Positions 1,021 through 52,615 of a stretch of DNA of 64,000 nucleotides are shown in pieces. How positions within the stretch are numbered: position 1 is the stretch's first letter; each line of letters opens with the position of its first letter. Location of the stretch: assembly GCA_001779925.1 (NCBI GenBank), contig MFEK01000010.1, positions 19,377 through 83,376 of the forward strand. The letters are read 5' to 3'. Under the pieces are notes generated by a model. The model was given only the letters and a program-made list of their open reading frames with translations, was not told the DNA's origin and did not search any database. Made by a program: the position numbers and the translations under genes. This stretch comes from Candidatus Doudnabacteria bacterium RIFCSPHIGHO2_01_FULL_46_14. Lineage in GTDB: Bacteria; Patescibacteriota; Doudnabacteria; UBA920; 2-01-FULL-46-14.

Positions 1021-2535
1021 ATGCCACAGTTTAAGCAAGTCATCCTTATTATTCTCGACGGCTGGGGGTATAGAGAAGATACAAAGCACAATCCTATTGC
1101 CGCGGCAAAAAAACCGTTTTTTGATTATCTCTGGAAAACCTATCCGCATGCTCTTCTGGAAGCGTCCGGCGAAGCAGTGGGATTGCCGCCGGGAACTCTC
1201 GGCGGCAGTGAGGTCGGGCATACCACCATCGGTGCTGGGCGGGCCATGGATACGGATCTGGCGCGAATCAACAAATCGTTTGCGGCAGGCGAGGCTAAAA
1301 CCAACCCGGCTTTTGCCGGTTTGTTTGAGCATGTCAAAAAACATAACTCGATCCTGCACATCCTCGGCATGGTCAGTGACAAAGGCGTTCATGCGCACCA
1401 GGAGCATTTGTTTGAATTTCTAAAAGCCGCACATGACGCCGGAATAAAAAAAATCGCGATTCATGCTTTTACGGACGGACGGGATACGCCGCCCCAGAGT
1501 TCGGATAATTATATCCGAGAGCTCGAGGATATTCTGGAAAAAATCGGTGTGGGCCGCATTGCCACAGTCTCGGGAAGATATTATGCCATGGACCGCGACA
1601 AAAATTGGGACCGTATCGAAAAGGTGGAGCACGTCATGTTTCACGGCAAAGGGCAAGCACATACCGGCCGTCCGTCCAAGGTCATCAAGATGCTTTATGA
1701 GCAGGGTCTGACTGACGAACATTTTGAGCCAATGGTGTTCGTGGATGACTCTGGTAAAAGTCTGACTGTTCAGGCAAACGACGGCTTGTTCTTTTTTAAC
1801 TATCGCCCTGACCGCGCGCGGCAAATCAGCCAAAAAATTCTCGAACGCGCTCACGCTCAGAACCTTTGCTTTGTAACCATGACTGAATACGACGAGAGTT
1901 TTCAGTGCCTGGTGGCTTTTGAAAGCAAACCTGTAGAAACCACTCTGGCTTCGGAAATTTCCAAAGCAGGGTTCACTCAGGCCCACATCGCGGAAACCGA
2001 CAAATACGCCCACCTTACATATTTTCTCAATGGCGGCCGCGAGGAACCACACGATAAAGAAGAGTTTGTGCTCGTCGATACCAGAAAAGACGTGAAAACC
2101 CATGACCTGGCTCCGGAAATGCGAGCAAGCGTTATCGCTGACGAGGCGATCGCGAGAATTAAAAATCAGGTCAATTTTATTGCCATCAATTTTGCCAATC
2201 CTGACATTGTCGGGCACAGCGGCAATTTTAAGGCCATGGTAAAAGCGATTGAAACGGTTGATGCCGAGGTTAAGAGAGTTGTGGAAGCCGCCCTCGCAAA
2301 CCACGCGGTCGTCCTAATCACCGCAGATCATGGCAACGCAGAGATTAGTCATGATGAGGAGGTTGGCCAAAATCACACCGCGCATACCTTGAGTCCAGTG
2401 CCCGTGATTTTGACAATAAAAAATCTCAAACTAAAAAACGGCACTCTGGCCGATATTGCCCCAATGATTTTGAAATTATTTAATCTACCAATCCCCTCCT
2501 CCATGACCGGATCCCCTCTTTTTCCCTCCCCTTGA
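1021..2535 (+). CDS. gpmI: 2,3-bisphosphoglycerate-independent phosphoglycerate mutase
   Basis: MPQFKQVILIILDGWGY... and ...NFANPDIVGHSGNF... iPGM motifs; start set to ATG 1021 inside track ORF 982..2535; the last codons (PSP-stop) are encoded by repeat R1. Confidence 0.9.
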   Translation: MPQFKQVILIILDGWGYREDTKHNPIAAAKKPFFDYLWKTYPHALLEASGEAVGLPPGTLGGSEVGHTTIGAGRAMDTDLARINKSFAAGEAKTNPAFAGLFEHVKKHNSILHILGMVSDKGVHAHQEHLFEFLKAAHDAGIKKIAIHAFTDGRDTPPQSSDNYIRELEDILEKIGVGRIATVSGRYYAMDRDKNWDRIEKVEHVMFHGKGQAHTGRPSKVIKMLYEQGLTDEHFEPMVFVDDSGKSLTVQANDGLFFFNYRPDRARQISQKILERAHAQNLCFVTMTEYDESFQCLVAFESKPVETTLASEISKAGFTQAHIAETDKYAHLTYFLNGGREEPHDKEEFVLVDTRKDVKTHDLAPEMRASVIADEAIARIKNQVNFIAINFANPDIVGHSGNFKAMVKAIETVDAEVKRVVEAALANHAVVLITADHGNAEISHDEEVGQNHTAHTLSPVPVILTIKNLKLKNGTLADIAPMILKLFNLPIPSSMTGSPLFPSP

Positions 2536-2563
2536 TGGGGAGGGACTGAGGAAGGGGTGAAAA
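2524..2563. repeat. GC-rich palindromic repeat family A, locus R1 (single unit: palindrome CCCTCCCC-TTGAT-GGGGAGGG plus GGGTGAAAA tail)
   Basis: Direct reading; the same unit recurs about 26 times in the window; the TGA in the core is the gpmI stop. Confidence 0.85.
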
Positions 2564-4134: not shown

Positions 4135-4280
4135 GTCTAAAACTCCTCCTGCTTTCTTGGAATTCTCTTCAGGTTGTATTTGCCAAAAAACGGCACCTTA
4201 AGAGACTTTAAACTATAGCACAAATACCGCAAAAAAACAAGAGCCGACGGCCGGCACAAGCGATAAATACCAAAATTATT

Positions 4281-4372
4281 CCTCCCCCTTGAGGGGGGAG
4301 GTTAGGTGGGGGTGAAAAACAACTCTTTATTACCACCCCTCCCTCAATCCCTCCCCCTCAAGGGGAGGGAAA
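4281..4372. repeat. repeat family A, locus R2 (inverted pair, tails inward)
   Basis: cctcccccttgaggggggagg-ttaggtgggggtgaaaaa ... ccacccctccctcaat-ccctccccctcaaggggaggg. Confidence 0.85.
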
Positions 4373-15570: not shown

Positions 15571-15581
15571 TAACCTATTTT

Positions 15582-16992: not shown

Positions 16993-17943
16993 TTATTGTT
17001 TGGTCAAAGCCTCCCTGTATGCAACTAGAACTTTCTGTCCGTGGGAGCCCGGATGGAATGACAGCTCATTGTCAGAAACAAGAATGTTCTCCTGCCTGCG
17101 GATGCGGTGCTTTTGATAGATTCCGAGCAGGTAATTCAAAACCGGAGCGATCGTATAGTCCAGGATCAACTCTAAAATCTTACCCGCGACGCTGAATCGA
17201 AAATCGAAAAATGGCACTGCCCTCTCGTACCGAACATTCGGCAGATAGCCTTTTATCCATTGGTTTTTTTGCCAAAATCTCTTGAGTGTATCGCCGCCGA
17301 TCACCGGCAGGAGACTGGCGTATTCGACCGCGGTATAAAGATTGCGATCATCGGTAATCTCGGTATCGTCCGCCAAATAATGGTTGAGGCAAAATCGGCC
17401 AGCAATTCTTTCCGCATACCTCCGCTGTCCCACCAGCTGAAAATATGCCGAAACCAGCGCGCGGGTCAGCCAAATGCGATTTTTTTTTGTGATGATAAAA
17501 AGATCAATGTCTGATCCGGACTCAGAGTTGAGTAGCGCCTGGGAGCCGGACAGGGCCACGGCCCGCACATATGGCAGGTGCCGCAAAAAACGCAAATATT
17601 TTTTGGTTTTGGCAAATCGCAGCAGCGAGATCTGGTAGCGGTGCTTTCTCTCGGCGATCAATTCTGCGCGACCGCGCAAAAAATACAGGCCTTCGCGATG
17701 CTCGACTTTGCCGGATAATTCTACGGTAATCGTGCTTTCGATTTCAGACAGGATTTCACCCCCACCTTTATCCTCCCCCCTCAAGGGGGAGGAATGGGAA
17801 CCGGTCCCCGCTTTTCCCTCCCCTTGAGGGGGAGGGACCGAGGGAGGGGTGTGAATTAGATAATTTTTCAGTTCCAGGCCCGTCAGCGCCATATCCTGCG
17901 TGTCAAAAAAAACCAGAGTGCTATAGGCTGAATTTTTCTGCAT
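16993..17943 (-). CDS. nucleotidyltransferase (Pol-beta superfamily, MNT-type GS...SDIDL) domain protein
   Basis: LSGSQALLNSESGSDIDLFIIT motif; start chosen at MQKNSAY (17943); repeat locus R3 translated in-frame near the N-terminus. Confidence 0.5.
   Translation of the reverse strand: MQKNSAYSTLVFFDTQDMALTGLELKNYLIHTPPSVPPPQGEGKAGTGSHSSPLRGEDKGGGEILSEIESTITVELSGKVEHREGLYFLRGRAELIAERKHRYQISLLRFAKTKKYLRFLRHLPYVRAVALSGSQALLNSESGSDIDLFIITKKNRIWLTRALVSAYFQLVGQRRYAERIAGRFCLNHYLADDTEITDDRNLYTAVEYASLLPVIGGDTLKRFWQKNQWIKGYLPNVRYERAVPFFDFRFSVAGKILELILDYTIAPVLNYLLGIYQKHRIRRQENILVSDNELSFHPGSHGQKVLVAYREALTKQ
17754..17855. repeat. repeat family A, locus R3 (inverted pair, tails outward) inside NTase CDS
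   Basis: tttcacccccacctttatcctcccccctcaagggggagg ... ttttccctccccttgagggggagggaccgagggaggggtgtgaa; encodes ...PPSVPPPQGEGKAGTGSHSSPLRGEDKGGGE... Confidence 0.85.
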
Positions 17944-19257: not shown

Positions 19258-19385
19258 GAATGTAAAGTTTAAAAATCAAAATGTAAAATTACAGTGTAAA
19301 ATTTTAAAATTTTTAATTGTCATTTTGATCTTTGATATTTACATTTTAAATTATCTTCTCCGGGTGTATACTTATCTTACCATAT
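19258..19385. promoter_or_regulatory. AT-rich divergent promoter region (mutM <-> rel) with inverted TGTAAAAT/ATTTTACA repeats
   Basis: aaaatgtaaaattacagtgtaaaatt...atttacattttaaatt. Confidence 0.35.
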
Positions 19386-24541: not shown

Positions 24542-26069
24542 CGCTAGTAAAAATCAACAAATTTCTAGCTGGAAATTTTCGCAATCGCCAAAATAGGACG
24601 GCGTAATAAACAAAAATCCCTGCGACCGGCACGCCGAGCGCGACCTGAGCAAACGGGATTCGCGCGAAAAATTCCACCACCCAGATTTGAAATGCCAGAA
24701 TCCCCCAAAGCACAACAGCCAATATTTTCGCCACAGGTACATAAATCATACCGAGCACCCCGGCCGTAAGAGCCAAAAACATAGCATAAGGTACTGTCCA
24801 GAGGATCAGCACATTGACCACAATGGAAACAATAGAGAGGCGTTCAAAATAAAAGATGAGGAGAGGCAGAGCGAAAATTTGCGCAGCCATAGTGGAAGCC
24901 AGATTCTTGCGAAATTCCAAGATATTCGGCACCCATTGTAGTTTATTCTCAAACCATGAGCCAAGATAGATAAGCCCGGCTGTAGCCATGAATGAGAGCT
25001 GAAAACCCAAATCAAACCCCAGAATCTTGGGGTTTTCGAGTACCATAAGCGCAGCAACAAAGATCAGGGCATTCAGAGACACATAAATTCGTCCGACATT
25101 TAAAGCCGCAACCGCCAGCATGGCCATGACTGCCGCGCGAACCACAGACGCGTCCGCGCCGGTGATGACGACAAACGCGAGCACCAGCAAAAATGATAAA
25201 ACAAGGGCACTGCGCCGGCCTACATACTGCCGGGTTTTCAAAATATTCTGAGTAATAATCGACATATTATATCCAGAAATTACAATGATGTGGGATACAC
25301 CAACAGCAATCATAGCGTTTTTGAGATCTTCCGGAATCCTGTGCTTCACGCCGAGGATCAGGCCCTGGGCCAAAGCGTTATGCGGCTCTGGTAAAATTTG
25401 CGAGAGCACTCCCTGAAATCGATGCTTTATACTTAGCAGAGCCGCTTTCATCTTATTTCCTTGATCTTCCCCTATTTTTTCAATCTTTGGAAAACGCATC
25501 ACCGCATAAGTATCATAACGCGACAAATAATCTTTATAGGAAAACTCTTCGCTCACAAACGGCTCTTCGACTTTTCCTGAAAATTTTAATCTATCGCCGT
25601 ATTGATATTCCGGATATTTCCCGACATTCAACAAAATATTTCCAGTAAGCTCCCTCTCCTTACCCTCTTTCTCTTCCACTCCCCTCCCTTGCAGTGTCCG
25701 CCGCAGCCTTGCGCGGAGACTGGGAGGGGAGGGTGAAGTTACTTTCACTGTCAAATTCACCTTATCGCTCCTCACATCCGGCTCTTTCACTATTATCCCT
25801 TCCAGTTCAACTTCTTGCCCATAATATTTTCCAATAAAATTTTCTTGATCGGGAAAGCTCGCCTGATATCTTACCGCTCCAAAAAGCGCGACCAATCCCA
25901 AAAATCCCGCCAGCACAAACCTTTTATCACTCCACCAAATCGTAATTAGAATCAAAAAAAACATGGCCGCGATAGCCATGATATAGTAATTAACATACCT
26001 GCCCGCGCCCACCCCGGCCACAAAACTCAAACAGAAAAACAGAAAAATTTTAGATTTTTCGAATTTCAC
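24516..26069 (-). CDS. comEC: ComEC/Rec2 DNA-uptake channel (DUF4131 + competence domains), lacking the MBL domain
   Basis: Multi-TM 517 aa; ...GVSHIIVISGYNMSII...; repeat R4 in-frame in the N-terminal region. Confidence 0.7.
   Translation of the reverse strand: MKFEKSKIFLFFCLSFVAGVGAGRYVNYYIMAIAAMFFLILITIWWSDKRFVLAGFLGLVALFGAVRYQASFPDQENFIGKYYGQEVELEGIIVKEPDVRSDKVNLTVKVTSPSPPSLRARLRRTLQGRGVEEKEGKERELTGNILLNVGKYPEYQYGDRLKFSGKVEEPFVSEEFSYKDYLSRYDTYAVMRFPKIEKIGEDQGNKMKAALLSIKHRFQGVLSQILPEPHNALAQGLILGVKHRIPEDLKNAMIAVGVSHIIVISGYNMSIITQNILKTRQYVGRRSALVLSFLLVLAFVVITGADASVVRAAVMAMLAVAALNVGRIYVSLNALIFVAALMVLENPKILGFDLGFQLSFMATAGLIYLGSWFENKLQWVPNILEFRKNLASTMAAQIFALPLLIFYFERLSIVSIVVNVLILWTVPYAMFLALTAGVLGMIYVPVAKILAVVLWGILAFQIWVVEFFARIPFAQVALGVPVAGIFVYYAVLFWRLRKFPARNLLIFTSDVSQKAKI
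25677..25738. repeat. repeat family A, locus R4 (variant palindrome with 34-nt internal spacer) inside comEC
   Basis: cactcccctccc-ttgcagtgtccgccgcagccttgcgcggagactg-ggaggggagggtgaagt. Confidence 0.7.
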
Positions 26070-26491
26070 AAACGACTCCCGGTTTTACTCGCCTCCCCTT
26101 GCGAAAGGACATCTCCTCTTACTCCCCTCCCTTGACGGGAGGGGCTGGGGAAGGGTGGTGCGCAAAGTTTTCCAATTCTATCAAAGACACCTTCCCGGTT
26201 TTGCAAAACTTCGTTATTCCAGAATCGTAAAATTGCAAACCCCTGTGAGCTTAACCATTCGTCGCGAATCTTATCCTGTTCTAAAGTTTCATCTGCATGC
26301 TGGCCGCCGTCTATCTCGATGATCAATTTAACCGAAAAGCAAACAAAATCAACAATATAATTTCCGATTGGCTCCTGACGGCGGAATTTCGATCCAGAAA
26401 GTTGCTTTGAGCGAAGAAAATACCAGACGGCTTTTTCCGCTTCGGTCATCTGGTTTCTCAACTTTCTGACTACATTTGTTGTTTGTCTCAA
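26066..26491 (-). CDS. DUF559 (Vsr-like endonuclease fold) protein
   Basis: ...EPIGNYIVDFVCFSVKLIIEIDGGQH...WLSSQGFAILRFWNNEVLQN...; C-terminal 30 aa encoded by repeat R5; start codon abuts R6. Confidence 0.7.
   Translation of the reverse strand: MRQTTNVVRKLRNQMTEAEKAVWYFLRSKQLSGSKFRRQEPIGNYIVDFVCFSVKLIIEIDGGQHADETLEQDKIRDEWLSSQGFAILRFWNNEVLQNREGVFDRIGKLCAPPFPSPSRQGRGVRGDVLSQGEASKTGSRL
26092..26160. repeat. repeat family A, locus R5 (within 3-prime end of DUF559 gene)
   Basis: cctccccttgcgaaaggacatctcctcttactcccctcccttgacgggaggggctggggaagggtggtg. Confidence 0.75.
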
Positions 26492-26525
26492 TCACCCTCT
26501 CCTACCTCTCCCATCAAGGGAGAGG
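26492..26525. repeat. repeat family A, locus R6 (variant; immediately upstream of DUF559 start)
   Basis: tcaccctctcctac-ctctccc-atcaa-gggagagg; inverted relative to R5. Confidence 0.7.
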
Positions 26526-26568
26526 AATAAATCACTTCCTGTTTGCCAGTTGCACAAATTCTAAAACG

Positions 26569-27307: not shown

Positions 27308-28630
27308 TTAATTAATATTTAAAAACTTTACCAAATCTTTTTGTTGCTTCACCTTTTCTTGCTTTCCTGTTTTCAGATTTTTGACGGTCGCCTCGTTTTT
27401 CTTTGCCTCATCCGGTCCGATGATCACAGCAAAGTTAATATTTTTCTTATCCGCATATTTCAGCTGTTTATCAAGCTTGGCAGGTGTATAGTAAAAATCG
27501 GTCTTTACCCCACTTTCCCTAATTTCCCTTACTATTTTAAGATAAAGTTCCTCAAGCGCCTCCTCAAGATTGCAAACCAGCACGTCCGAAACCAAATCAT
27601 ATTTTATCAATTCCAACTCTTCCAGCGCGGCCACAAGCCGGTCAATGCCAATGGACCCGCCGACAGCGGGAACCGACCTCCCCTTTGATTCCCCTCCTCG
27701 TGAGGAGGGGTTAGGGGAGGTTAAAAACATGCCCACAAGGTTGTCATATCTGCCGCCGCCCGCAACACTGCCATATTGCGGCGCGTCCGGCAAGATCACT
27801 TCAAAAACCGTGCCTGTATAATAATCAAGACCGCGGGCCAGGGTGAGATCAATCTGATAATTCTTCATTCCCCATTCCAGCAAAATCTCCACAAGCTCGG
27901 CAAGCTCCCCTGCACCTGACAGGCCAGCGAGTTTGGTCTCAATATCTTTTGAGTCTTCGAGTCCCAATTTGAGAGTTTCAAATAGCTCTTGTCTGGCTTT
28001 GGTTTTGATGCCGACAAGCGTGAGTTCCTCGCGCACTTTCGCTTCTCCGATTTTATCCATTTTATCGATCACCCGAATAGCGTCGACAACTTTATTTTTA
28101 GCCACACCCGAATTCTGTAAAATCGCATCAAGCAGTTTGCGGTTATTGATTCTGATAATTACGTCTTCAATCCCCAAGCTCTTCAGCGCTTCATTTATGC
28201 AAGCAATGACCTCTGCGTCCGCGATAATCGAATCTGACCCCACCACGTCCACGTCGCACTGGTAGAATTCGCGGTACCGTCCCTTTTGCGTATTATCCGC
28301 CCGCCACACTGGGGCAATCTGATAACGCTTGAAAGGCATGGGCAATTCATTCTGATACTGCGCAATCACCCTCGCCAAAGGCACAGTGAGGTCATAGCGC
28401 ATCGCCACATCTCGCTCGCCGCGATCCCGGAAACTGTACATGAGCTTTTCGCCCTCGCTACCGTATTTGCCGGTCAAAATTTCTTTGTATTCAAGGACCG
28501 GCGTTTCCATTGGCAAAAAACCGTATTTCTGAAATACAGCTCGGATGGTTTCAAAGATTTTTTCTCTCTCCAAAGCCTTCTCCGGCAAAAAATCCCGAAA
28601 ACCTTTCAATGTTTGCAATTCTTTTTTCAT
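27308..28630 (-). CDS. hisS: histidine--tRNA ligase
   Basis: MKKELQTLKGFRDFLPE...; motif 2/3 region ...SVAGGGRYDNLVGMF...; anticodon-binding domain; R7 in-frame between motif 3 and PAVGGSIGIDRL. Confidence 0.9.
   Translation of the reverse strand: MKKELQTLKGFRDFLPEKALEREKIFETIRAVFQKYGFLPMETPVLEYKEILTGKYGSEGEKLMYSFRDRGERDVAMRYDLTVPLARVIAQYQNELPMPFKRYQIAPVWRADNTQKGRYREFYQCDVDVVGSDSIIADAEVIACINEALKSLGIEDVIIRINNRKLLDAILQNSGVAKNKVVDAIRVIDKMDKIGEAKVREELTLVGIKTKARQELFETLKLGLEDSKDIETKLAGLSGAGELAELVEILLEWGMKNYQIDLTLARGLDYYTGTVFEVILPDAPQYGSVAGGGRYDNLVGMFLTSPNPSSRGGESKGRSVPAVGGSIGIDRLVAALEELELIKYDLVSDVLVCNLEEALEELYLKIVREIRESGVKTDFYYTPAKLDKQLKYADKKNINFAVIIGPDEAKKNEATVKNLKTGKQEKVKQQKDLVKFLNIN
27677..27728. 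repeat. repeat family A, locus R7, in-frame within hisS
   Basis: cctcccctttgattcccctcctcgtgaggaggggttaggggaggttaaaaa; encodes ...LTSPNPSSRGGESKG... Confidence 0.8.
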
Positions 28631-30061: not shown

Positions 30062-30190
30062 TTCCCTCCCCTTACCGGCGGTCCCCCGAAAGCGTAATCG
30101 CTTTCGGGGTAGACTTGAGGGGGAGGGACTGAGGGAGGGGTGTGGTATTGAAGTTTCACCCCCACCTTGCCTCCCCCATCAAGGGGGAGG
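30062..30190. repeat. repeat family A, locus R8 (inverted pair; first unit carries a nested 40-nt hairpin insertion)
   Basis: ttccctcccctt[accggcggtcccccgaaagcgtaatcgctttcggggtagac]ttgagggggagggactgagggaggggtgtgg ... tttcacccccaccttgcctcccccatcaagggggagg. Confidence 0.85.
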
Positions 30191-30201
30191 AATAAAATCA
30201 G

Positions 30202-30576: not shown

Positions 30577-30622
30577 TTTTCCCTCCCCTCAATGGGAAGG
30601 GATTGAGGGGAGGGGTGTATAA
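30577..30622. repeat. repeat family A, locus R9 (variant)
   Basis: ttttccctcccctcaatgggaagggattgaggggaggggtgtataat; its 3-prime end creates a TATAAT box 10 bp before the next gene. Confidence 0.75.
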
Positions 30623-35238: not shown

Positions 35239-38200
35239 GATTTATTATATTCCTGCCACGATTTAATTTTCAAGTCTTCCAATTTATAGGTCGTCAGAGC
35301 GCGGACAAAGGCGCGCGCGAGAAACAGATCCGTAAACAGTGGGGTGTTATTGTCCACGGTTGCCCGGCGAATGAGATGCCCGTCGGTAATGGTTGAGGCG
35401 ACATTACGCTGTTCATCAGGACTGCGCTCCGTCAGGTTAATCACAAACGCGACCTTTTTTTGGTTGATAAATTCCAGGACATTCAGCTTTCGCGATTCGT
35501 GGACTTTGTAGACTTTGGAGCATTTTACCCCGGATTTATTGAAAAAGTCGCACGTAGTATCAGTCGCGTAAATTTTAAATCCAGCTCTGAGAAGCGCTTT
35601 CGCGCTTTCCAAAAACCGTTTTTTGTTCATGATGCCGCCGAGGGACAAGAGCACGGCTTTTTTGTTGATAAACGGCACGGTAGCATAAACAGATTTGAGA
35701 AGGGCTTCGTCCGCATCATCACCAAAACACGCGACCTCGCCGGTGGAAGCCATTTCCACATGCAGGAGCGGATCCGCGCCTGCAAGCCTGGCAAAAGAAA
35801 ACTGCGGCGATTTTACTACAACGCTACTAGGATAAGGGATTTCAATCCTACGACTTTTACCATAGAACGAGGCCACGATCATTTCCGCAAAATTAACACC
35901 GGTGGCCTTGGAAAGAAGCGGAAAGGTTCGGGACGCGCGGAGGTTTGCTTCAATCACGTAAACCCGGTTGTCTTTGACCAAAAACTGCACGTTTAATGGC
36001 CCGGTGATGGTGAGGGCGCGAGCCAGGGCGGCCCCGACCTTCATGATCTTCTGTTCCGTGGAAGCAAAAACCCGCTGGGTCGGATAAACAATCGTCGCAT
36101 CTCCGGAATGCACGCCCGCATTTTCAATGTGTTCGGAGATAGCTTGCACCTGAATGCGGCCATTTTGCGCGACCGCGTCAAGCTCGATCTCCCGCGCGCT
36201 CGTGAAAAATTTGGAAATAGTCACAGGATGGGTCTTGTTAAGAGTCGTTGCTTTATTTACAAACCATTCCAGCTCGTGCTCATTGTAACAAACTGACATT
36301 GCCGACCCGGAGAGCACGTATGAGGGACGCACCAAAACCGGATAGCCCACCTCGCTTGCAAACTTTTGCGCCTCGGCCATATCCGTAAAACTGTTCCAGC
36401 GCGGCTGGGGGATGGCAAGCCTGTCTAGCAGCGCGGAAAATTTATTACGGTCTTCCGCCCGATCAATATTTTCGGCCGCGGTGCCGAGAAGTTTCGCCCC
36501 ATATTCAGAAAGAGCGTTGGCCAGGTTGTTCGGCGCCTGGCCGCCGACCGACACAACCACGCCTTCGGGTTTTTCAAAATCGAGAATCTCGGTCACTGTT
36601 TCAAATGACAGCTCCTCGAAATAGAGCCTTGCCGACATGTCGTAGTCCGTAGAAACTGTTTCCGGATTGCAATTAATAATGATCGACTGCCTGCCGTATT
36701 TCGGAAGCGCAAGCGCGGTATGGACGCACGACCAGTCAAACTCTACGGACGAACCAATATGATATGGGCCGGAACCCAAAACCACCACGCTTTTTTTACC
36801 AAGGGCCCTCACATCATGGTGCGAACCATTATAGGTCAAGTAAAGATAATTGGTTTTCGCCGGTACCTCGCCTGCCAGCGTGTCGATCTGAAATACCGAG
36901 GGCGTAACACGCAGTTTTTTGCGAAGCTTGCGGATCTCTGTTTCCGGCACATTCCTGATATGCGCTATGCGACGATCAGAAAACCCGAGTTGTTTGAGGT
37001 GCCAAAGCTCGTCTGTTTCCAGTTTCTTATTTCTGGCAAGTCCGAGCTCGGCCTCGACAATATTTTTAACGCGATAAAGAAACCATGGATCAATCCCAGT
37101 CAGAGCTTTGATTTTCCTGATCGGCACATTGCGTTTTATGGCTGAAGCCAGGGCAAATAGACGCTTTGGCGTGGGCACGCGCAAATAGCGCTCAAGCTCT
37201 TCCGGAGAAAAATTATTATCCGTTACGCCTTCCACACGGCCATGGAGCATGCGCACGGCTTTCTGCAGAGCCTCCTCAAACGTGCGGCCAACGGCCATAA
37301 CCTCGCCCACGCTCTTCATGGCACTGCCGATTTTTTCCTCGGCCCCGCGGAATTTTTCCAAATCCCAGCGCGGGATTTTCACTACTACGTAATCAAGCGC
37401 TGGTTCAAAAAAAGACTGGGTAACCTTTGTAACTTGATTCTGTACATCAAGAAGAGATTTTCCAAGGGCAAGTTTCGCGGCTACGTATGCGAGCGGATAA
37501 CCCGTGGCTTTCGAAGCCAAAGCCGAAGATCGGGAGAGGCGGGCGTTGACCTCTATAACTTCAAAATCAAATCCACCCCCACCCCGCCTCCCCCCTCGAG
37601 GGGGAGGAATCCTTCTGTACTTCCCTCCCCTTGAGGGGGAGGGACTAAGGGAGGGGTGAGGGTTTACCGCATATTGAACGTTGCACTCGCCGACTATTCC
37701 CAAAGAACGCACGATTTTTATGGAAGCCTCGCGCAACAAATGATATTCGTCATTGGTCAGGGTCTGGCTCGGCGCCACCACAATCGAATCACCGGTATGG
37801 ATGCCGAGGGGATCGAGGTTTTCCATGTTGCAGACAGTAACGCAATTGTCATAGGCATCCCGAACCACTTCGTATTCAAGCTCTTTGTAGTGATGTAGAT
37901 ATTTTTCTACGAGAATTTGCGAGGAGATAGCGAGCGCGTCTCTTGCAATCTTTTCTAATTCCTCCCTACTCCGCGCCATCCCAGATTTTTGTCCACCGAG
38001 CGCATAAGCCGCTCTGACCATGACCGGGTAGCCAATATTTTTGGCAATCTTTAACGCCTGCGGTAAATTTGTAGCCGCCTTGCTTTTCGGCACGGAAATA
38101 TTTATTTTTTTCAAATGATCAGCAAATTTCTGACGATCTTCAGTAAGAACAATGGCCTCAATAGGGGTTCCGAGCACTGCTACGCCATATTTTTTCAGAA

Positions 38201-38546
38201 CGCCTTTTTTGTGCAAAGCCAGGCCGCAGTTGAGCGCAGTCTGTCCGCCAAATGACAGAAAAATTCCATCAGGCCGCTCTTTTTCTATCACCCGTTCCAC
38301 AAAATAGGGCGTAACCGGCAGGAAATAAATTTCGTCCGCAAGAAGCGGCGAGGTCTGAATGGTCGCAATATTGGGATTTACGAGAATGATTTTGATTCCT
38401 TCCTCCCGCAGAGCTTTCATTGCCTGGCTGCCAGAGTAATCAAACTCGCCTGCTTCGCCGATTTTCAGCGCGCCTGATCCCAGAACTAAAACTTTTTTTA
38501 TACCCCCTCTCCTTTCTAAGGAGAGGGTTGGGGTGAGGTCTCTCAT
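35235..38546 (-). CDS. carB: carbamoyl-phosphate synthase large subunit
   Basis: 1103 aa, two ATP-grasp halves + MGS-like domain; N-terminal 14 aa (MRDLTPTLSLERRGG) encoded by repeat R11; R10 in-frame after first ATP-grasp. Confidence 0.95.
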   Translation of the reverse strand: MRDLTPTLSLERRGGIKKVLVLGSGALKIGEAGEFDYSGSQAMKALREEGIKIILVNPNIATIQTSPLLADEIYFLPVTPYFVERVIEKERPDGIFLSFGGQTALNCGLALHKKGVLKKYGVAVLGTPIEAIVLTEDRQKFADHLKKINISVPKSKAATNLPQALKIAKNIGYPVMVRAAYALGGQKSGMARSREELEKIARDALAISSQILVEKYLHHYKELEYEVVRDAYDNCVTVCNMENLDPLGIHTGDSIVVAPSQTLTNDEYHLLREASIKIVRSLGIVGECNVQYAVNPHPSLSPSPSRGGKYRRIPPPRGGRRGGGGFDFEVIEVNARLSRSSALASKATGYPLAYVAAKLALGKSLLDVQNQVTKVTQSFFEPALDYVVVKIPRWDLEKFRGAEEKIGSAMKSVGEVMAVGRTFEEALQKAVRMLHGRVEGVTDNNFSPEELERYLRVPTPKRLFALASAIKRNVPIRKIKALTGIDPWFLYRVKNIVEAELGLARNKKLETDELWHLKQLGFSDRRIAHIRNVPETEIRKLRKKLRVTPSVFQIDTLAGEVPAKTNYLYLTYNGSHHDVRALGKKSVVVLGSGPYHIGSSVEFDWSCVHTALALPKYGRQSIIINCNPETVSTDYDMSARLYFEELSFETVTEILDFEKPEGVVVSVGGQAPNNLANALSEYGAKLLGTAAENIDRAEDRNKFSALLDRLAIPQPRWNSFTDMAEAQKFASEVGYPVLVRPSYVLSGSAMSVCYNEHELEWFVNKATTLNKTHPVTISKFFTSAREIELDAVAQNGRIQVQAISEHIENAGVHSGDATIVYPTQRVFASTEQKIMKVGAALARALTITGPLNVQFLVKDNRVYVIEANLRASRTFPLLSKATGVNFAEMIVASFYGKSRRIEIPYPSSVVVKSPQFSFARLAGADPLLHVEMASTGEVACFGDDADEALLKSVYATVPFINKKAVLLSLGGIMNKKRFLESAKALLRAGFKIYATDTTCDFFNKSGVKCSKVYKVHESRKLNVLEFINQKKVAFVINLTERSPDEQRNVASTITDGHLIRRATVDNNTPLFTDLFLARAFVRALTTYKLEDLKIKSWQEYNKS
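37573..37661. repeat. repeat family A, locus R10 (inverted pair) in-frame within carB
   Basis: ccacccccaccccgcctcccccctcgagggggagg...ttccctccccttgagggggagggactaagggaggggtgagg; encodes ...PSLSPSPSRGGKYRRIPPPRGGRRGGGGF... Confidence 0.85.
38500..38540. repeat. repeat family A, locus R11 (variant) at the carA/carB junction
   Basis: ataccccctctcctttctaaggagagggttggggtgaggtc; carA stop and carB start overlap (ATGA) at 38543-38546. Confidence 0.7.
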
Positions 38547-39646
38547 TCCAATTTCTTTATAAATTCATCGAAAATCCAGCCAGTGTCGAGCGGGCCGGGG
38601 TGAGACTCGGGATGAAACTGCACAGACATGAACGGCAAATGCTCGTGGATAATCCCTTCGTTGGTTTTGTCATTGACATTCACAAACCAAGCCCGAAAAC
38701 CTTTAGGGATTTTTTTGACCGCAAAACCGTGATTTTGCGTGGTGAGATAAGCGCGCTTAGTACCGACCAGAATGGCCCCGTGGTTTTGCCCGCGGTGGCC
38801 GAATTTTAGCTTATAAGTATCTCCGCCAGCGGCCAGAGTGAGAATCTGGTTACCAAGACAAATACCGAGAATGGGAATTTTTTTTTCTAAAGCAATTTTG
38901 GTAATCGCAATCGTTCTCGTGGCCATCTTCGGATCGCCCGGGCCATTGGAAATAACTATACCGTCAAACTTTAACCGCTTGGCAAAAATATCATAGTCCC
39001 AAGGCACAACTGTCACGCGGATTTTTCTTTTGACCAGTTCGCGGATAATATTCTGTTTTACGCCGCAATCGAAAACCACAACTGTCTTTCGTCCGGAACC
39101 GGATTTTACTATTCGTTTTGTGGAGACCTCTGCAACCAAGTTACGCAAATTAGGATCTGCAAAATCACCCCCACCTAACCTCCTCCCTCGAGGGGGAGGA
39201 ATCCGCGATTTTCCCCTCCCTGGAGGGGAGGGGTTGGGGGAGGGTGAAAATGAGATTTTGCCTAGCATTACACCCTTTTCCCGCAATTTTTTCGTAAGCG
39301 CTCTGGAGTCTTTGATTTCCAGGGCTGGGATATTTTCCGCAGCTAGCCACTGCGCTAACGTCCGCCGCGAAGAATAATGCGACGGCGTATCTATATAATT
39401 AGATACTATCAATCCCGAAACTTTGATGCTGGCTGATTCCCAAACTTTTTTGTCTGGCACGCCATAGTTCCCGACCAGCGGATAAGTGAGTACCAAAATC
39501 TGCCCTTGATACGACGGATCAGTGAGGCTTTCCGGATATCCAACCATTCCCGTGGCAAAAACCACCTCACCAGAAACACTCCTCCGCGCACCGAAGCTGG
39601 TCCCGATTAATTCGGTATTATCTTCTAAAATTAGGCGTCCTAGCAT
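38543..39646 (-). CDS. carA: carbamoyl-phosphate synthase small (glutamine amidotransferase) subunit
   Basis: GATase triad region ...GICLGNQ...; R12 in-frame (..SPSPNPSPPGRGKSRIPPPRGRRLGGGDF..). Confidence 0.9.
   Translation of the reverse strand: MLGRLILEDNTELIGTSFGARRSVSGEVVFATGMVGYPESLTDPSYQGQILVLTYPLVGNYGVPDKKVWESASIKVSGLIVSNYIDTPSHYSSRRTLAQWLAAENIPALEIKDSRALTKKLREKGVMLGKISFSPSPNPSPPGRGKSRIPPPRGRRLGGGDFADPNLRNLVAEVSTKRIVKSGSGRKTVVVFDCGVKQNIIRELVKRKIRVTVVPWDYDIFAKRLKFDGIVISNGPGDPKMATRTIAITKIALEKKIPILGICLGNQILTLAAGGDTYKLKFGHRGQNHGAILVGTKRAYLTTQNHGFAVKKIPKGFRAWFVNVNDKTNEGIIHEHLPFMSVQFHPESHPGPLDTGWIFDEFIKKLE
39165..39250. repeat. repeat family A, locus R12 (inverted pair) in-frame within carA
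   Basis: tcacccccacctaacctcctccctcgagggggagg...ttcccctccctggaggggaggggttgggggagggtgaaaa. Confidence 0.85.
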
Positions 39647-41016: not shown

Positions 41017-42186
41017 CTATTGATTATCATGTATTTCTAACGGGGCGAGTCTATGATTTGCTCCAACAACTTCTTTAACTGACCGAAATCCATCAGCTTC
41101 CAATAATTTTACCAAACCCCGTTTAATTTTTTTCGGCAACGAAGGACCTTCATAAATCATACCCGTATAAATTTCCACGAGGCTTGCGCCAGCGCGGATC
41201 TTTTCGTACGCATCCTCAGCGGAAAAAATCCCCCCTGCTCCGATTATCGGTACTCGGCCTTCAAGCTTTTTGTAAAGATAACCGATCACTTCAGTAACTC
41301 TCTTGGCAATCGGGCGGCCAGACAAACCGCCCCCGCCCATGCCCTCAGTGGCAGCGGTATTAGTCGCAATAACCCCGTCAATCTTTGTTTCCAAAACAAT
41401 CTCTGCAATATCATCAAGCTCACCGTCAGTCAGATCAGGTGAGATTTTGAGAAGCAAAGGCCGCCACCCCCACCTAACCTCCTCGCCTCGCCTTCGCTCG
41501 GACGAAGCGGGCCCCCTCAAAGGGGAGGAATTCGTTTGTATTTCCCTCCCCTCGAGGGGGAGGGCTGGGGAGGGGTGATTCAATTTCTGTAATTCCATAA
41601 GCAAATTCCTCAGCTCCTCTTTCCCCTGTAATTCCCGCAGTCCCGGTGTATTTGGAGAACTAACATTGACCACCACATAGTCGGCCAAGGGCGCTAATTC
41701 TGTAAATCCCGTGGCATAATCGCGCAGAGCCTCCTCGTTCGGCGTAATTTTATTTTTTCCTAGATTGACCCCGATCACAAAATCGCGCTTCTCAAGTCTT
41801 TTCAAATTTTTCGCCACTGCCATTGCGCCCATGCTGTTAAATCCCATCCGGTTGATGATCGCCTTATCCGCATCCAGACGAAATAGTCGTGGTTTGGGAT
41901 TGCCCGGCTGCGGCTCAGGGGTCACAGTCCCCACTTCAATAAACCCAAACCCGAGCGCGGCCATGAACCGCGCAAAGCCGCCGGATTTATCATAGCCAGG
42001 TGCAAGGCCGATCGGATTTTTGAATCTGACTCCAAAGACTTCAGTCTCAAGCGATGGATGTTCGTACCGAAACAACGGCGAAAACACTTCGGAAAGTCCC
42101 GAAAAATTCCTGCCCAAAGCCGCCACAGCATTGTGCATGGTTTCTGGCTGGATAGTAAATAAAATCGGCCGCAAAAGTTTATACAT
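41017..42186 (-). CDS. pyrD: dihydroorotate dehydrogenase (class 2-like, with N-terminal extension)
   Basis: FKNPIGLAPGYDKSG..., FIEVGTVTPEPQPGNPKPRLFRL; R13 in-frame. Confidence 0.85.
   Translation of the reverse strand: MYKLLRPILFTIQPETMHNAVAALGRNFSGLSEVFSPLFRYEHPSLETEVFGVRFKNPIGLAPGYDKSGGFARFMAALGFGFIEVGTVTPEPQPGNPKPRLFRLDADKAIINRMGFNSMGAMAVAKNLKRLEKRDFVIGVNLGKNKITPNEEALRDYATGFTELAPLADYVVVNVSSPNTPGLRELQGKEELRNLLMELQKLNHPSPALPLEGREIQTNSSPLRGPASSERRRGEEVRWGWRPLLLKISPDLTDGELDDIAEIVLETKIDGVIATNTAATEGMGGGGLSGRPIAKRVTEVIGYLYKKLEGRVPIIGAGGIFSAEDAYEKIRAGASLVEIYTGMIYEGPSLPKKIKRGLVKLLEADGFRSVKEVVGANHRLAPLEIHDNQ
41464..41578. repeat. repeat family A, locus R13 (inverted pair; first unit with nested hairpin insertion) in-frame within pyrD
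   Basis: cacccccacctaacctcctcgcc[tcgccttcgctcggacgaagcgg]gccccctcaaaggggagg...tttccctcccctcgagggggagggctggggaggggtga. Confidence 0.85.
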
Positions 42187-46328: not shown

Positions 46329-46369
46329 TTCACCCCTCCCTCAATCCCTCCCCCTCAAGGGGAGGGAAG
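46329..46369. repeat. repeat family A, locus R14; supplies the last codons and stop of gene 46355..46852
   Basis: ttcacccctccctcaatccctccccctcaaggggaggg; minus-strand reading gives ...RFLPSP-stop. Confidence 0.85.
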
Positions 46370-49495: not shown

Positions 49496-49531
49496 TCTCT
49501 CCCCCTCGTGAGGGGGATCTGGAGGGGGTTA
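49496..49531. repeat. repeat family A, locus R15 (abuts stop codon of DUF559 gene 2)
   Basis: tctctccccctcgtgagggggatctggagggggtta. Confidence 0.75.
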
Positions 49532-49909
49532 TCATAAATTTAGCTTGTGAATTAAATCATCAAAGACACCGGAAGTATTGTGCATGATATCACGATTACT
49601 GTATCTAACAATCTGGCAACCTAGTGATTTCAGATAATTTTCTCTCATAATATCATTCCCCATTGTGGAGGCTTCTGCATGCGTATCGCCATCAATCTCG
49701 ATAATATATTTTTTTTCTGGACAATAAAAATCGACTACATAATCTCCAATTGCATGCTGGCGCCGGAATTTTAAATTATAGAACTGCTTGCCCCCAACTT
49801 TGGTCCAGAATATTTGTTCTGCAGGGGTCATATCGCGACGCAATCTTCTGCGTATGGAAATGGTTTTTGGAGAACCTGATTTTGGCCCGCGAGATTGATT
49901 GAATTTCAT
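49532..49909 (-). CDS. DUF559 (Vsr-like endonuclease fold) protein, paralog 2
   Basis: ...HAIGDYVVDFYCPEKKYIIEIDGDTH...LGCQIVRYSNRDI... Confidence 0.7.
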   Translation of the reverse strand: MKFNQSRGPKSGSPKTISIRRRLRRDMTPAEQIFWTKVGGKQFYNLKFRRQHAIGDYVVDFYCPEKKYIIEIDGDTHAEASTMGNDIMRENYLKSLGCQIVRYSNRDIMHNTSGVFDDLIHKLNL

Positions 49910-49943
49910 AACCTCCCCTAACCCCTCCTCACGAGGAGGGGAA
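49910..49943. repeat. repeat family A, locus R16 (abuts start codon of DUF559 gene 2; inverted relative to R15)
   Basis: aacctcccctaacccctcctcacgaggaggggaa. Confidence 0.75.
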
Positions 49944-49951
49944 CTAATGCG

Positions 49952-52483
49952 CTACCCGCACTTACTGAACCCGCAGAGGTCGCATTTGAGGCATCCCTCG
50001 GCCATCATCAGCATATTGCCGCAATCCGGACAGGCCGGAGCGTGGCCGAGATTGGCAATGGAGGTTTTGACTTCTAGTTCTGCCTCGCCAGAACTCCCCC
50101 CCGCCCCCTCTTTGGTAAAAGAGGGGGAGACTGATTCAACCTGAGGCGTTTCGTCTTTTCCGAATTTCAGCCCCAGCTCTGTCTGGCCGCGCTTGATGTG
50201 GCTTTCCAAAACCTGGCCGATGGCATCCGGCAGAGAATGAATCGTGCCGCCATTGGCAAAGATAATGTCCGGGCCGCGGATGCCTTTGAGCTGATCGATT
50301 ATTTCCGTGGTCGCAGTGCCGGTGCGCAGAGCCAGGGAAATGAGTCGGCAGATCGCTTCAGTCTGCGCGTGGAAAAAACCGCCCGCTTTGCCAAGACTGG
50401 AGAAGACCTCAAACGGGCCGTGCTCGTCCTCGTTGATCGTCACAAACAGATTGCCGTACGAGGTACGCGTGCGGTAAGTCACGCCCCGCATCACATCCGG
50501 CCGCTCACGCGGAATGGTTTTGTAATTGTTCGAGCCGTTGACGATTTTAGCACTTAAAATTTGCTCGACTTTTTCGGCAACCTTATTTTCTCCCATAGAA
50601 GCTGACATGCTCATGTGTTCCATGCCTGGGGCAAGCGATTTGGCTTTATCGAGGTTCTTATTGAGGTTCAGTACCTGGACTTCGCGTGAGCCATCGCGGT
50701 ACAAGGTGCAGCCTTTGCAGCCCAGTTTCCAGGCCATGATATAGCCATCCTCAATGTCCTGAACAGTGGCTTCATGCGGAAAATTGATGGTTTTGGAAAT
50801 GGAGTTCTCTACGTATTTCTGGAACGCGCCCTGAGCTTTGATGTGATCCTGCGCGGAAATATCCATGGCCACGCGGAACGTATCTTTGACCTCTTGAGGA
50901 ATCCCCGCGATATTTTCCACAGATCCTTCCTGGATAATCTGATTTTTAATTTCTTCCGAGATGCCATGCTTGACGAGGGCGGCTTCCAGATAGCGGTTCA
51001 AATATTTATAAGTATGGCCATCTTTGTCCTGTTTGGTAAAAGCCAGGGCAAAGTTCGGCTCAATCCCGGAACTGGTATCAAAGAACATGGAGATTGAACC
51101 GGTCGGTGCAACTGTGGTGACCATGGTGTTGCGCCGTTTTATGCCCTGGATGGCCCAGGTCGAGTGTTCCCACAAAGGAAATTCTGCTTTTTCCGCGGCC
51201 AGGGCGACAGATGTGTTGTGCGATGACTCCTGAATGGTTTTCATGACCAGCTCACCGGTTTCAAAGCCCTTATCAGAATCATAACGCACATTCATTTGGT
51301 AAAGCATATCTGCATAACCCATGACGCCGAGGCCGAGTCTGCGGGTATTGTGGGACATCTCCTGCACCTCGCGCACCGGGTAGTCGAACAGATCAATGAC
51401 ATTGTCGAGAAAACGCGTGGACACCATGGACACATGCTCGAGGCGCTTGAGATCCAGCTGGCCGTCTTTTACAAAAGCCGCGAGATTGATCGAGCCAAGA
51501 TTGCAGACATCATAAGGCGGCAGACCCTGCTCGCCGCACGGATTGGTGGCCTCGATCGGGGTTTTCGGCATGGTGTTGCCGCGGTTGAACGCATCGAGAA
51601 ATATGACTCCCGGCTCGCCATTGTGCCAGGCATTCTGCACGATCTCATTGTAAAGCTCTTTGGCGGTCATATTGAGCTCTTCGATATTTACGACCACGCC
51701 AAAACGGTCGCGGGTGATACGCCGCGGCTTCATTTTTTCGCCCTGGAAGCGGCAGTACCACTGCTCATTGGGCCGCTCGCTCACCGCTTTCATGAATTCA
51801 TCAGTCATGCCCACGCTGATGTTAAAATTGCGAATGTCACCTTCCACGCGCTTGCAATGCACAAAATCGAGAATATCCGGATGATCAACCGGCAAAATCG
51901 CCATGTTCGCGCCATGCCTGCCCTGCTGTTTTATCACGCCAAAGGCCTGGTTGTAGACTTGCAGGAACGAAACCGGACCAGAGGCCATCCCTACCGAGGC
52001 TTTGACCACAGTGCCGGCAGGCCTGAGCCTGCCAAAAGAAAAACCCAAACCGCTACCGGCTTTTTGGAGGAGCGCCGCGTCCTTCAAAGTCTTGAAAATC
52101 CCTTCCATGCTGTCCTCGATAGGGAGGACTATGCAGTTAGCCACGACCGGCGAAGGTGCGCCGGCATTGGTAATGGTCCGGCCGGCCGGCGTAAACTCTT
52201 TGTGAGCCACAATCTCAAAAAATTCTTTTTCCCAGTAGCGGATCTTATCGGCAGGAAGGCCGTAGTTTTTGTCAGCACCGGCTACCGCATGGGCAATGCG
52301 GTGGATCATTTCAGCCGGGGTTTCCTGGGTGCCATCCTCGCGTTTTACGAGGTAGCGCTTTTTCATCATCCGCAGGGCATTCTCGGAAAAAGAATCATTT
52401 ACTTTTTTTGCCAAATCCGCGCTCAAAAAATCGCAGTTTTGGATTTCGACCATTATTTCTTTTCTTTTGGTTTGTGTGGCCAT
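49952..52483 (-). CDS. nrdJ: ribonucleotide reductase, class II (adenosylcobalamin-dependent) type
   Basis: N-terminal ...SENALRMMKKRYLVKREDGTQETPAEMIHRIAHAVA...; active-site NPCGEQ; C-terminal CxxC...CxxCxxC tail; no nrdB nearby; R17 in-frame in the C-terminal tail. Confidence 0.8.
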   Translation of the reverse strand: MATQTKRKEIMVEIQNCDFLSADLAKKVNDSFSENALRMMKKRYLVKREDGTQETPAEMIHRIAHAVAGADKNYGLPADKIRYWEKEFFEIVAHKEFTPAGRTITNAGAPSPVVANCIVLPIEDSMEGIFKTLKDAALLQKAGSGLGFSFGRLRPAGTVVKASVGMASGPVSFLQVYNQAFGVIKQQGRHGANMAILPVDHPDILDFVHCKRVEGDIRNFNISVGMTDEFMKAVSERPNEQWYCRFQGEKMKPRRITRDRFGVVVNIEELNMTAKELYNEIVQNAWHNGEPGVIFLDAFNRGNTMPKTPIEATNPCGEQGLPPYDVCNLGSINLAAFVKDGQLDLKRLEHVSMVSTRFLDNVIDLFDYPVREVQEMSHNTRRLGLGVMGYADMLYQMNVRYDSDKGFETGELVMKTIQESSHNTSVALAAEKAEFPLWEHSTWAIQGIKRRNTMVTTVAPTGSISMFFDTSSGIEPNFALAFTKQDKDGHTYKYLNRYLEAALVKHGISEEIKNQIIQEGSVENIAGIPQEVKDTFRVAMDISAQDHIKAQGAFQKYVENSISKTINFPHEATVQDIEDGYIMAWKLGCKGCTLYRDGSREVQVLNLNKNLDKAKSLAPGMEHMSMSASMGENKVAEKVEQILSAKIVNGSNNYKTIPRERPDVMRGVTYRTRTSYGNLFVTINEDEHGPFEVFSSLGKAGGFFHAQTEAICRLISLALRTGTATTEIIDQLKGIRGPDIIFANGGTIHSLPDAIGQVLESHIKRGQTELGLKFGKDETPQVESVSPSFTKEGAGGSSGEAELEVKTSIANLGHAPACPDCGNMLMMAEGCLKCDLCGFSKCG
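50094..50129. repeat. repeat family A, locus R17 (variant) in-frame in nrdJ tail
   Basis: ctcccccccgccccctctttggtaaaagagggggag; encodes ..SPSFTKEGAGGSSGE.. Confidence 0.7.
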
Positions 52484-52519: not shown

Positions 52520-52602
52520 TTCCCCTCCCTCGAGGGGAGGGGTAAGGGGAAGGTGATATTTAATTTTCCACCCCCACCTAACCTCCCCCCTCAAGGAGGA
52601 GG
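52520..52602. repeat. repeat family A, locus R18 (inverted pair, tails inward) between nrdR and nrdJ
   Basis: ttcccctccctcgaggggaggggtaaggggaaggtga...ttccacccccacctaacctcccccctcaaggaggagg. Confidence 0.85.
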
Positions 52603-52615
52603 AATACATACACAA

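Follow-up and report, generated by a model that had tools for sequence, protein, structure and literature searches.

Why are two genes of the DUF559 family, on one stretch of a Candidatus Doudnabacteria genome (Patescibacteria), each enclosed by inverted copies of the same kind of short, hairpin-forming repeat? Our analysis of this stretch (64,000 nt, hereafter the window) points to an answer that we consider, on balance, to be the probable one: a DUF559 gene and two inverted units of a triplex-motif repeat together form a cassette of ~430 bp, in which a Vsr-like nuclease is partnered with repeats in a manner resembling the REP/RAYT systems. Known from the early 1990s onward, BoxC/potential intrastrand triplex (PIT)/triplex-motif repeats are present in hundreds of genomes as markers of unstable loci, so far with no known origin, means of spreading or partner protein. 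DUF559, for its part, is a very large family, including E. coli YcjD, with no assigned function. A link between the two gives both of them testable roles, and provides a long-orphan repeat family with a candidate partner enzyme, comparable to RAYT for the REP repeats. Literature searches, with subscription-only literature lying outside their coverage, found no paper connecting DUF559, YcjD or COG2852 to triplex-motif repeats.

Two DUF559 genes are bracketed by inverted repeat units

An nhmmer model built from the window copies of the repeat detected 21 full units, divided 12 to 9 between the two orientations, and 3-4 partial ones. Run on the window, a structure-based finder called 19 units without overlaps; on five shuffled copies of the window it called none. 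Each unit spans 35-40 nt and comprises an 8-10-bp palindrome of a C-rich and a G-rich arm around a 4-5-nt loop, a spacer of 2-5 nt, and a G-rich tail that mirrors the G-rich arm. The two DUF559 genes and the units around them are:

26066..26491, minus strand: DUF559 gene 1, 141 aa (Pfam PF04480, E=1.6e-41, residues 4-109)
26493..26528, minus strand: unit upstream of gene 1 (nhmmer E=5e-7; tail 26493-26503, palindrome 26506-26526)
26121..26157, plus strand: unit downstream of gene 1 (nhmmer E=8e-8; palindrome 26123-26145, tail to 26157)
~26092-26120: decayed second unit beyond the downstream unit of gene 1
49532..49909, minus strand: DUF559 gene 2, 125 aa (Pfam PF04480, E=1.1e-29)
49908..49943, minus strand: unit upstream of gene 2 (nhmmer E=1.7e-7; ends ...GGTTA, the last A being the A of ATG)
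49496..49533, plus strand: unit downstream of gene 2 (nhmmer E=1.9e-5; meets the stop codon)

The initial annotation had described both genes as exactly bracketed by inverted copies of the repeat, with the palindromes pointing outward and the tail arms facing the gene. These coordinates bear out the description for either cassette, and only the two DUF559 genes, out of 73 gene-sized open reading frames (ORFs) in the window, are framed by units. Only 1-2 nt separate the upstream unit of gene 1 from the TTG start (26491), and this unit is predicted to fold, as single-stranded DNA, into an 8-bp hairpin (-8.9 kcal/mol, z=-3.3). In both cassettes the tail of the upstream unit supplies an AGGAG or GGAGG just ahead of the start codon, which for gene 1 is an AGGAG located 7 nt before the TTG. 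The downstream unit of gene 1 falls within the last ~30 codons of the ORF, directly after the Pfam domain, and encodes the protein tail 'PPFPSPSRQGRG', residues ~110-141 being read-through of this unit. The two DUF559 proteins share 45% identity, meaning that the genes are not recent copies of each other.

With 21 units per 64 kb, the repeat is dense enough in this genome for a chance encounter with genes to deserve consideration, and the initial annotation had itself named density as a possible explanation. However, when the 21 units were placed at random (20000 trials), at least one DUF559 gene was framed in 0.09% of trials and both were framed in 0/20000. Repeat density therefore fails to explain the bracketing, and since the arrangement also recurs in dozens of unrelated genomes with few other units (see below), we regard chance as refuted.

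Eight contigs of the same strain, assembled from aquifer metagenomes, are 100% identical, show one and the same orientation and include no empty site. Five of them break within the 35-nt unit upstream of gene 2 (49900-49945), indicating that the repeats break short-read assemblies. These contigs also bear on the idea that the DUF559 gene undergoes programmed inversion, driven by its inverted repeats, so as to be switched on and off or between alleles. In its favor, 'DUF559 domain-containing protein' is 14-fold enriched, without comment, among predicted programmed-inversion targets (PMC9881135). Yet any inverted repeat around a gene yields such enrichment, no invertase gene is found near either cassette, the orientation is the same in all eight contigs, and inversion would leave the scattered lone units unexplained. 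We thus consider a switch very improbable.

The repeat is a variant of the BoxC/PIT/TM_ECO family

The repeat itself had been recognized in the initial annotation, which missed, however, that it belongs to a known class: judged by its build, the window repeat is a member of the BoxC/PIT/TM_ECO intrastrand-triplex family, as a sequence variant. Earlier descriptions of this family were reportedly given by Bergler in 1992, Bachellier in 1999, and Hoyne and Maher in 2000. Its members have been named, in turn, BoxC (in E. coli), PIT elements and TM_ECO, the latter with the consensus CCCTCNCCC-N3-6-GGGNGAGGG-N3-GGGNGAGGG (Holder et al. 2015; PMC4666352). According to that study, E. coli K-12 has 23 TM_ECO copies, the motif folds as an intrastrand triplex in vitro, its loci are unstable, units are strictly intergenic, and inverted doublets always consist of one type A and one type B unit (PMC4666352). 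No mobility gene or function was detected beside the motifs in this main study, and published tests cited therein found no promoter or terminator activity (PMC4666352).

The window units have all parts of the family build, i.e. a C-rich arm, a loop, a complementary G-rich arm, a short loop and a second, mirroring G-rich arm. They share the family's length (~35-38 nt) and its occurrence as lone units or mixed-subtype inverted doublets, as well as its wide distribution, strong conservation and association with unstable loci. Indeed, all 7 window doublets join subtype B to A or C, and never the same subtype twice. None of the window units fits the exact TM_ECO pattern: their arms are 8 nt long (CCCTCCCC, CCTCCCCC, CCCCTCCC) with a second loop of 2-5 nt, and it is this arm length together with the different sequence that makes them a variant of the TM_ECO class. 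The exact pattern does fit the flanks of many proteobacterial DUF559 genes. Rfam holds no family matching the window units. Two differences from the published family stand out, namely that several window units lie in frame within essential genes, whereas the E. coli units are intergenic, and that published work describes neither an associated mobility gene nor a link to DUF559.

DUF559 proteins carry a Vsr-like nuclease core

Against Pfam PF04480, the window proteins scored 141 and 103 bits (cut-off 20.6) and fall into the YcjD-like clade. They also matched NCBIfam PRK09767 (the YcjD equivalog) below its 218-bit cut-off and REase_MTES_1575 below its own, leaving DUF559 as the only family above the Pfam cut-off. 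Residues D48, E59, D61 and H65, of the catalytic type for such nuclease cores, are invariant among 26 homologs. A close solved homolog of the gene 1 protein, PDB 3HRL (E=2.4e-29, 55% identity), has no assigned function, and the family, which comprises 25,748 clusters at 50% identity, has a profile that reaches as far as the Vsr-like homing endonuclease I-Bth0305I (PDB 3R3P). In fold and superfamily, DUF559 is related to the very-short-patch repair endonuclease Vsr (PMC3424549), from which the window proteins differ in several respects: they have no match to the Vsr Pfam family PF03852, no cytosine-5 methyltransferase gene lies beside either gene, and the catalytic motif is another one (D...ExD...H). 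An assignment to a defense system was rejected, as PADLOC gave weak matches only, to nuclease domains in DpdF, Hhe and a methyl-directed restriction enzyme, and there was no defense context.

Inverted repeat units frame DUF559 genes across phyla

To follow the arrangement beyond the window, we surveyed 80 DUF559 loci close to both window proteins (one genome per species, the best-scoring 80 of 587 matches). They derive from Alpha-, Beta-, Gamma- and Deltaproteobacteria, Chloroflexota, Nitrospirota, Omnitrophota, Clostridia, Aminicenantes, Spirochaetes, Patescibacteria and others. A repeat model made from the window alone proved too narrow for other phyla and was replaced with the structure-based, subtype-independent finder. 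A correctly oriented unit was present upstream of the gene in 64/80 loci, downstream in 55/80 and on both sides in 50/80, as compared to 8, 9 and 0 of 1209 random intervals, respectively. Likewise, the flank-to-flank inverted-repeat score had a median of 44 in the 80 loci vs. 18 in 676 random intervals with matched spacing, 78% of the loci lying above the 99th percentile of these controls. In every strong case, the two arms were the same kind of unit, with the palindrome outward and the tail inward, and DUF559 relatives were framed in this way in at least ten bacterial phyla. Four further DUF559 copies encountered in the surveyed loci were framed as well, and a separate set reached by other routes had a correctly oriented unit in 10/11 close relatives. 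Four distant matches on viral contigs had no unit.

The cassette is compact: measured between its outer palindromes, inclusive, it has a median length of 434 nt (range 398-577; 50 complete cassettes). The upstream unit ends a median of 27 nt ahead of the protein match, and the downstream unit begins a median of 29 nt ahead of the end of the match, such that many homologs carry a 'PSPxPSxxGRG' tail. In most loci, the two gene-flanking units were the only ones within 20 kb. One locus (L091) has two different DUF559 genes (186-626 and 3001-3387), one on either side of a CHASE2-guanylate cyclase gene.

Repeats and protein also co-vary. Within a cassette, the left arm is closer to its own right arm than to those of other loci (mean rank 0.80, p=4e-11), and the similarity of upstream units follows that of the proteins (Spearman 0.36; reached in 0/2000 permutations). 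The upstream unit of gene 1 is nearly identical to those of L008, L002 and L010, whose hosts are gammaproteobacterial, patescibacterial and zixibacterial and whose proteins rank 3rd, 1st and 6th of 55 in comparison with gene 1. Moreover, the gene 1 protein is 58% identical to proteobacterial proteins vs. 45% to gene 2 of its own genome, which points to horizontal transfer of gene 1 together with its repeats. At the level of sequence, then, the cassette is conserved across bacterial phyla and horizontally mobile, and similarity in one arm goes along with similarity in the other arm and in the protein.

The cassettes come and go as blocks at conserved sites

Neighbors of the two cassettes in the window are ComEC, an orphan ORF, ribonucleotide reductase (RNR) and a HAD hydrolase. 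At the gene 2 site, downstream of RNR, relatives differ widely. L112 and L135 have no unit there, and L141 has a partial one. In L114, gene 2 is absent between RNR and the HAD gene, and a lone unit ending ...GGGGGTTATG directly precedes the latter; such a unit precedes cobA in L113, L118 and L121. L142 has a third DUF559 type at this site, 60% identical to gene 1 and with two units of its own, and L110, L111 and L116 have a small GIY-YIG gene with different hairpin repeats. At the gene 1 site, HisRS is directly followed by ComEC in L147 and L148, a lone unit lies ahead of ComEC in L149, and an IS1595-family transposase gene (3986-4780) directly follows HisRS in L150. Relatives that are cassette-free or differ at the site imply that both window cassettes are insertions or deletions relative to them, and the empty sites for which the initial annotation suggested looking are thus found for both the RNR and the HisRS-ComEC site. 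Gain or loss has affected the cassette as a whole, and at the positions concerned relatives show nothing at all, a lone unit or the cassette of another small nuclease.

Some further observations concern these sites. The GIY-YIG gene (~5260-5520 in L110/L111, ~3400-3620 in L116) is framed by hairpins of its own (GTCATTCCCCGG... and GTCATTGCGAGG...GAAGCAATC), constituting a parallel case of a repeat-flanked small nuclease gene. The intergenic site 3′ of HisRS is a general landing place for mobile DNA. The orphan ORF of 242 aa (26569-27297, minus strand), located between HisRS and gene 1, has no homolog but itself in 5.8 billion proteins, precluding its use as a synteny anchor, and is missing from relatives in which HisRS and ComEC are adjacent. 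It may have arrived with the gene 1 cassette or be no real gene.

Occupancy of the same sites by differing content is also what the main rival explanation would predict, in which the repeats spread otherwise and serve as a target, and DUF559 is a free-standing selfish gene of the homing-endonuclease type, which inserts into existing units or beside them, by homing or site-specifically, and so comes to be framed. Precedents for such targeting are IS1397 and ISPpu9, which land in REPs. Consistent with homing, a lone unit sits exactly at the cassette position in L114 and L113 (after RNR) and in L149 (before ComEC), the RNR site harbors differing DUF559 types or GIY-YIG cassettes as is seen with free-standing homing genes, the family profile extends to a homing endonuclease (I-Bth0305I), and there is no target-site duplication. 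On the other hand, repeat subtype and protein stay linked across phyla and the arms co-vary, which fits units that are parts of the cassette; most loci contain within 20 kb only the two units beside the gene; and relatives are very rare in viral contigs (9 in 2.9 million), where free-standing homing genes thrive. On this evidence, we judge homing unlikely, albeit still a serious competitor to the partnership of a nuclease with its own repeats.

The surroundings of E. coli ycjD are remnants of the same arrangement

The DUF559 gene of E. coli, ycjD (b1289), runs at its 3′ end into a degenerate unit, and an intact BoxC unit follows within ~170 nt downstream, so that one E. coli member of the repeat family adjoins a DUF559 gene. 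These surroundings are remnants of a repeat-DUF559-repeat arrangement. In K-12 (1351160-1351410; L146), a duplicated DUF559 3′ fragment (ETVLENIRQGLNRP...) is followed by the intact BoxC unit, and this fragment is a remnant of a second cassette or of a rearrangement. A supplementary table of Holder et al. already lists a motif between fabI and ycjD, with no conclusion drawn (PMC4666352), and ycjD is reported to stand where other phylogroups have the eefRABCD operon (PMC12817139).

As a single-copy gene, ycjD is present in 3378 of 5426 complete E. coli genomes. Among 60 of these genomes, sampled at even spread, 37 contained the ycjD locus and had 12-26 unit-region matches (median about 18), and 23 lacked it and had 1-13 (median 3), a correlation confounded by phylogeny. 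The published motif counts of 29 in strain 55989 and 1 in IHE3034 (PMC4666352) agree with this pattern. Outside E. coli, Enterobacter asburiae has 143 units, E. aerogenes under 30 and Salmonella none.

Scattered units belong to the same family as the cassette arms

Apart from the two cassettes, the window contains the following units and doublets:

2521..2562, plus strand: lone unit overlapping the 3′ end of the phosphoglycerate mutase ORF
4278..4372: tails-inward doublet (B + A)
17755..17852: palindromes-inward doublet (B + A)
~25700-25740: unit in frame within ComEC
27689..27726, plus strand: lone unit in frame within HisRS, of the subtype found around gene 2
30114..30193: tails-inward doublet (partial A + B)
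30578..30619, plus strand: lone unit
37572..37659: palindromes-inward doublet (B + A) in frame within carB
38507..38540, plus strand: lone unit overlapping the 5′ end of carB
39164..39249: palindromes-inward doublet (B + C) in frame within carA
41512..41579: palindromes-inward doublet (partial + full unit)
46329..46369, minus strand: lone unit
50092..50128, minus strand: degenerate unit in the variable C-terminal linker of RNR
52520..52605: tails-inward doublet (subtypes C + B), a candidate gene-deleted cassette derivative

By their build, these lone units and mixed-subtype doublets are members of the same family as the cassette units. The initial annotation had proposed that repeat-only loci are miniature derivatives of the cassette from which DUF559 was deleted, and for at least one doublet this looks to be the case: the doublet at 52520-52605 matches the L142 cassette at either end, the alignment being interrupted by one gap of ~310 nt that corresponds to the ORF, although the match over the short AT-rich spacer is suggestive only. 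The palindromes-inward doublets are left unexplained by the proposal, which accordingly holds in part.

A lone unit is inserted in HisRS, the window protein whose closest named homologs are those of Candidatus Doudnabacteria. Positions 27689-27723 of this unit are identical, at 35/35 nt in reverse complement, to the unit upstream of gene 2, and the resulting 13-aa insertion is missing from three solved HisRS structures and from 7/14 of the closest homologs. No clean insertion boundary is readable for the RNR unit, owing to its location in a variable region.

As additional observations on in-frame copies, which include those at the 3′ end of phosphoglycerate mutase, at the 5′ end of carB and in the RNR linker, units and doublets in essential genes lengthen the proteins by 13-28 residues, among which P, S, G and R abound. 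At the HisRS codon following GGGRYDNLxGMF, different Doudnabacteria have different repeat-like insertions and seven others have none, marking this codon as an insertion hot spot. The insertions in the window and in L147 have the same junctions, yet of the two it is the window copy alone that forms a perfect palindrome and equals the gene 2 unit, which hints at ongoing homogenization.

In-frame copies are difficult to reconcile with a further alternative, according to which the units are cis-acting parts of the gene, i.e. a ribosome-binding site, mRNA-stabilizing or terminator hairpins, or an autoregulatory operator, and the scattered units are unrelated copies or remnants that involve no nuclease action. 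The position of the arms would suit such roles, given that the upstream tail places AGGAG/GGAGG just ahead of the start and the downstream unit overlaps the stop, and lone units ending ...GGGGGTTATG directly precede other genes in relatives. However, a ribosome-binding site plus a terminator would not require a symmetrical inverted pair, units reside in frame within HisRS, CarA and CarB, the number of units in E. coli goes with ycjD (subject to the phylogenetic confounding noted above), and published tests found neither promoter nor terminator activity (cited in PMC4666352). A purely regulatory origin is therefore improbable, and we rate the regulatory, inversion and chance explanations alike as weak.

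A proposed REP/RAYT-like partnership with a different enzyme class

The cassette combines features of several known mobile systems. Its terminal inverted repeats are those of a classical transposon, its scattered repeats in inverted copies around a gene are those of REP/RAYT, and its presence or absence at one intergenic site beside a conserved gene, as at the RNR and HisRS-ComEC sites, is typical of homing genes. Among transposon hallmarks, near-identical autonomous copies at several sites were not observed, the two window genes being 45% identical, and the associated gene is no HUH/Y1 (IS200/IS605-like) transposase, DUF559 being the sole match above the Pfam cut-off.

REP/REPIN sequences with RAYT (TnpA_REP) offer the closest comparison. 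There, too, short hairpin repeats occur alone or as inverted two-subtype doublets (as in BIMEs), a small nuclease gene in one or few copies is flanked by inverted repeat copies, and target-site duplications are absent. Repeat number, which goes with presence of the gene in REP/RAYT, may do so here as well, to judge from the E. coli sample with its phylogenetic confounding. In contrast to RAYT, the enzyme here is a Vsr-like PD-(D/E)XK nuclease rather than an HUH/Y1 transposase. The repeat differs in having a third, putatively triplex-forming arm and no GTAG/CGTC tag, in being conserved in sequence across phyla, and in overlapping the ribosome-binding site and 3′ end of the gene. Free-standing homing endonuclease genes and I-Bth0305I likewise involve a small intergenic nuclease gene with a related fold beside a conserved gene (ribonucleotide reductase, tRNA synthetase) and its presence, absence or replacement among close relatives. 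Unlike these, the DUF559 cassette is chromosomal and not phage- or intron-borne, is framed by conserved inverted repeats for which homing genes have no need, and shows no evident DNA-binding extension. Finally, in-frame insertion into essential genes, here HisRS, CarA and CarB, is reminiscent of Rickettsia palindromic elements (RPE) and cyanobacterial small dispersed repeats, which bear no sequence relation to the window units and for which we know of no associated enzyme.

If the partnership is real, the DUF559 protein would recognize the unit as a hairpin, cruciform or triplex and then nick or cut it. Repair or recombination at the resulting breaks could copy, homogenize and disperse units and, occasionally, the whole cassette, in a process like that of REP/RAYT with another class of enzyme and no target-site duplication. 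Nuclease activity on the units would likewise underlie the instability published for triplex-motif loci. The tail of the upstream unit would double as the ribosome-binding site of the gene, and the downstream unit would simply be read through by the ORF.

Several results weigh against such a partnership. First, there are few signs of movement of the whole cassette: direct repeats of at least 2 bp were present at 4% of 50 cassettes vs. 9.6% in shuffles, arguing against target-site duplication, and no identical DUF559 protein was found in more than one context, since P0035 and P0100, each on 18-24 contigs, always had the same neighbors, giving no sign of recent movement of the entire cassette. 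The composite selfish element proposed in the initial annotation thus stands as a discrete, conserved cassette that is present or absent at the same sites, yet not as an autonomously transposing unit. Second, palindromes-inward doublets are as common in the window as tails-inward ones and inserted as units into carA and carB, for which a simple gene-deletion origin is insufficient. Third, the commonest window subtypes, A and B, flank neither window DUF559 gene; subtype B flanks the third DUF559 type, found solely in the related contig L142. Fourth, unit density beyond 1 kb from the gene was 0.08 per kb in the 80 loci, implying that large-scale dispersal is lineage-specific, and the phylogenetically confounded correlation of unit number with ycjD in E. 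coli goes back to few independent events. Lastly, the survey query contained the repeat-encoded C-terminal tail and may have favored loci with a downstream unit; the upstream unit lay outside the query.

More tentatively, and with a likelihood somewhat below even, YcjD-like DUF559 proteins may be the partner nucleases of BoxC/PIT/triplex-motif repeats throughout Bacteria. This would amount to a second partnership of the REP/RAYT type, in which a Vsr-like PD-(D/E)XK enzyme recognizes non-B DNA (a hairpin or triplex), spreads repeats even in frame into essential genes, and causes rearrangements at their loci. Were this true, a new enzyme class would join the few known partnerships of a repeat with a nuclease, and an explanation would be at hand for the repeat-derived insertions that essential genes of candidate-phyla-radiation bacteria carry, for contig breaks in assemblies of their genomes, and for the many spurious 'PSPxPSxxGRG' protein tails in databases.

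Other repeats in the window

Several further repeats were noted in the window. An AT-rich inverted repeat of 57 nt (39646-39702 / 46915-46971), 86% complementary and with its arms 7.2 kb apart, is unrelated to the units, and an AT-rich near-palindrome of ~94 nt occupies 19259-19352. Direct repeats at 14819-14899 / 15560-15640 and at 15132-15178 / 15867-15913, ~740 nt apart and 74-80% identical, suggest that two paralogous genes lie in tandem, with a conserved hairpin upstream (GCGGATCCGCC...). An exact direct repeat of 39 nt (GGCTGGGGCTTCCTGCCGGAATTTATCCGGAAAAAATAA), whose copies at 20841-20879 and 21535-21573 are 694 nt apart, adjoins a degenerate unit at ~21582-21604.

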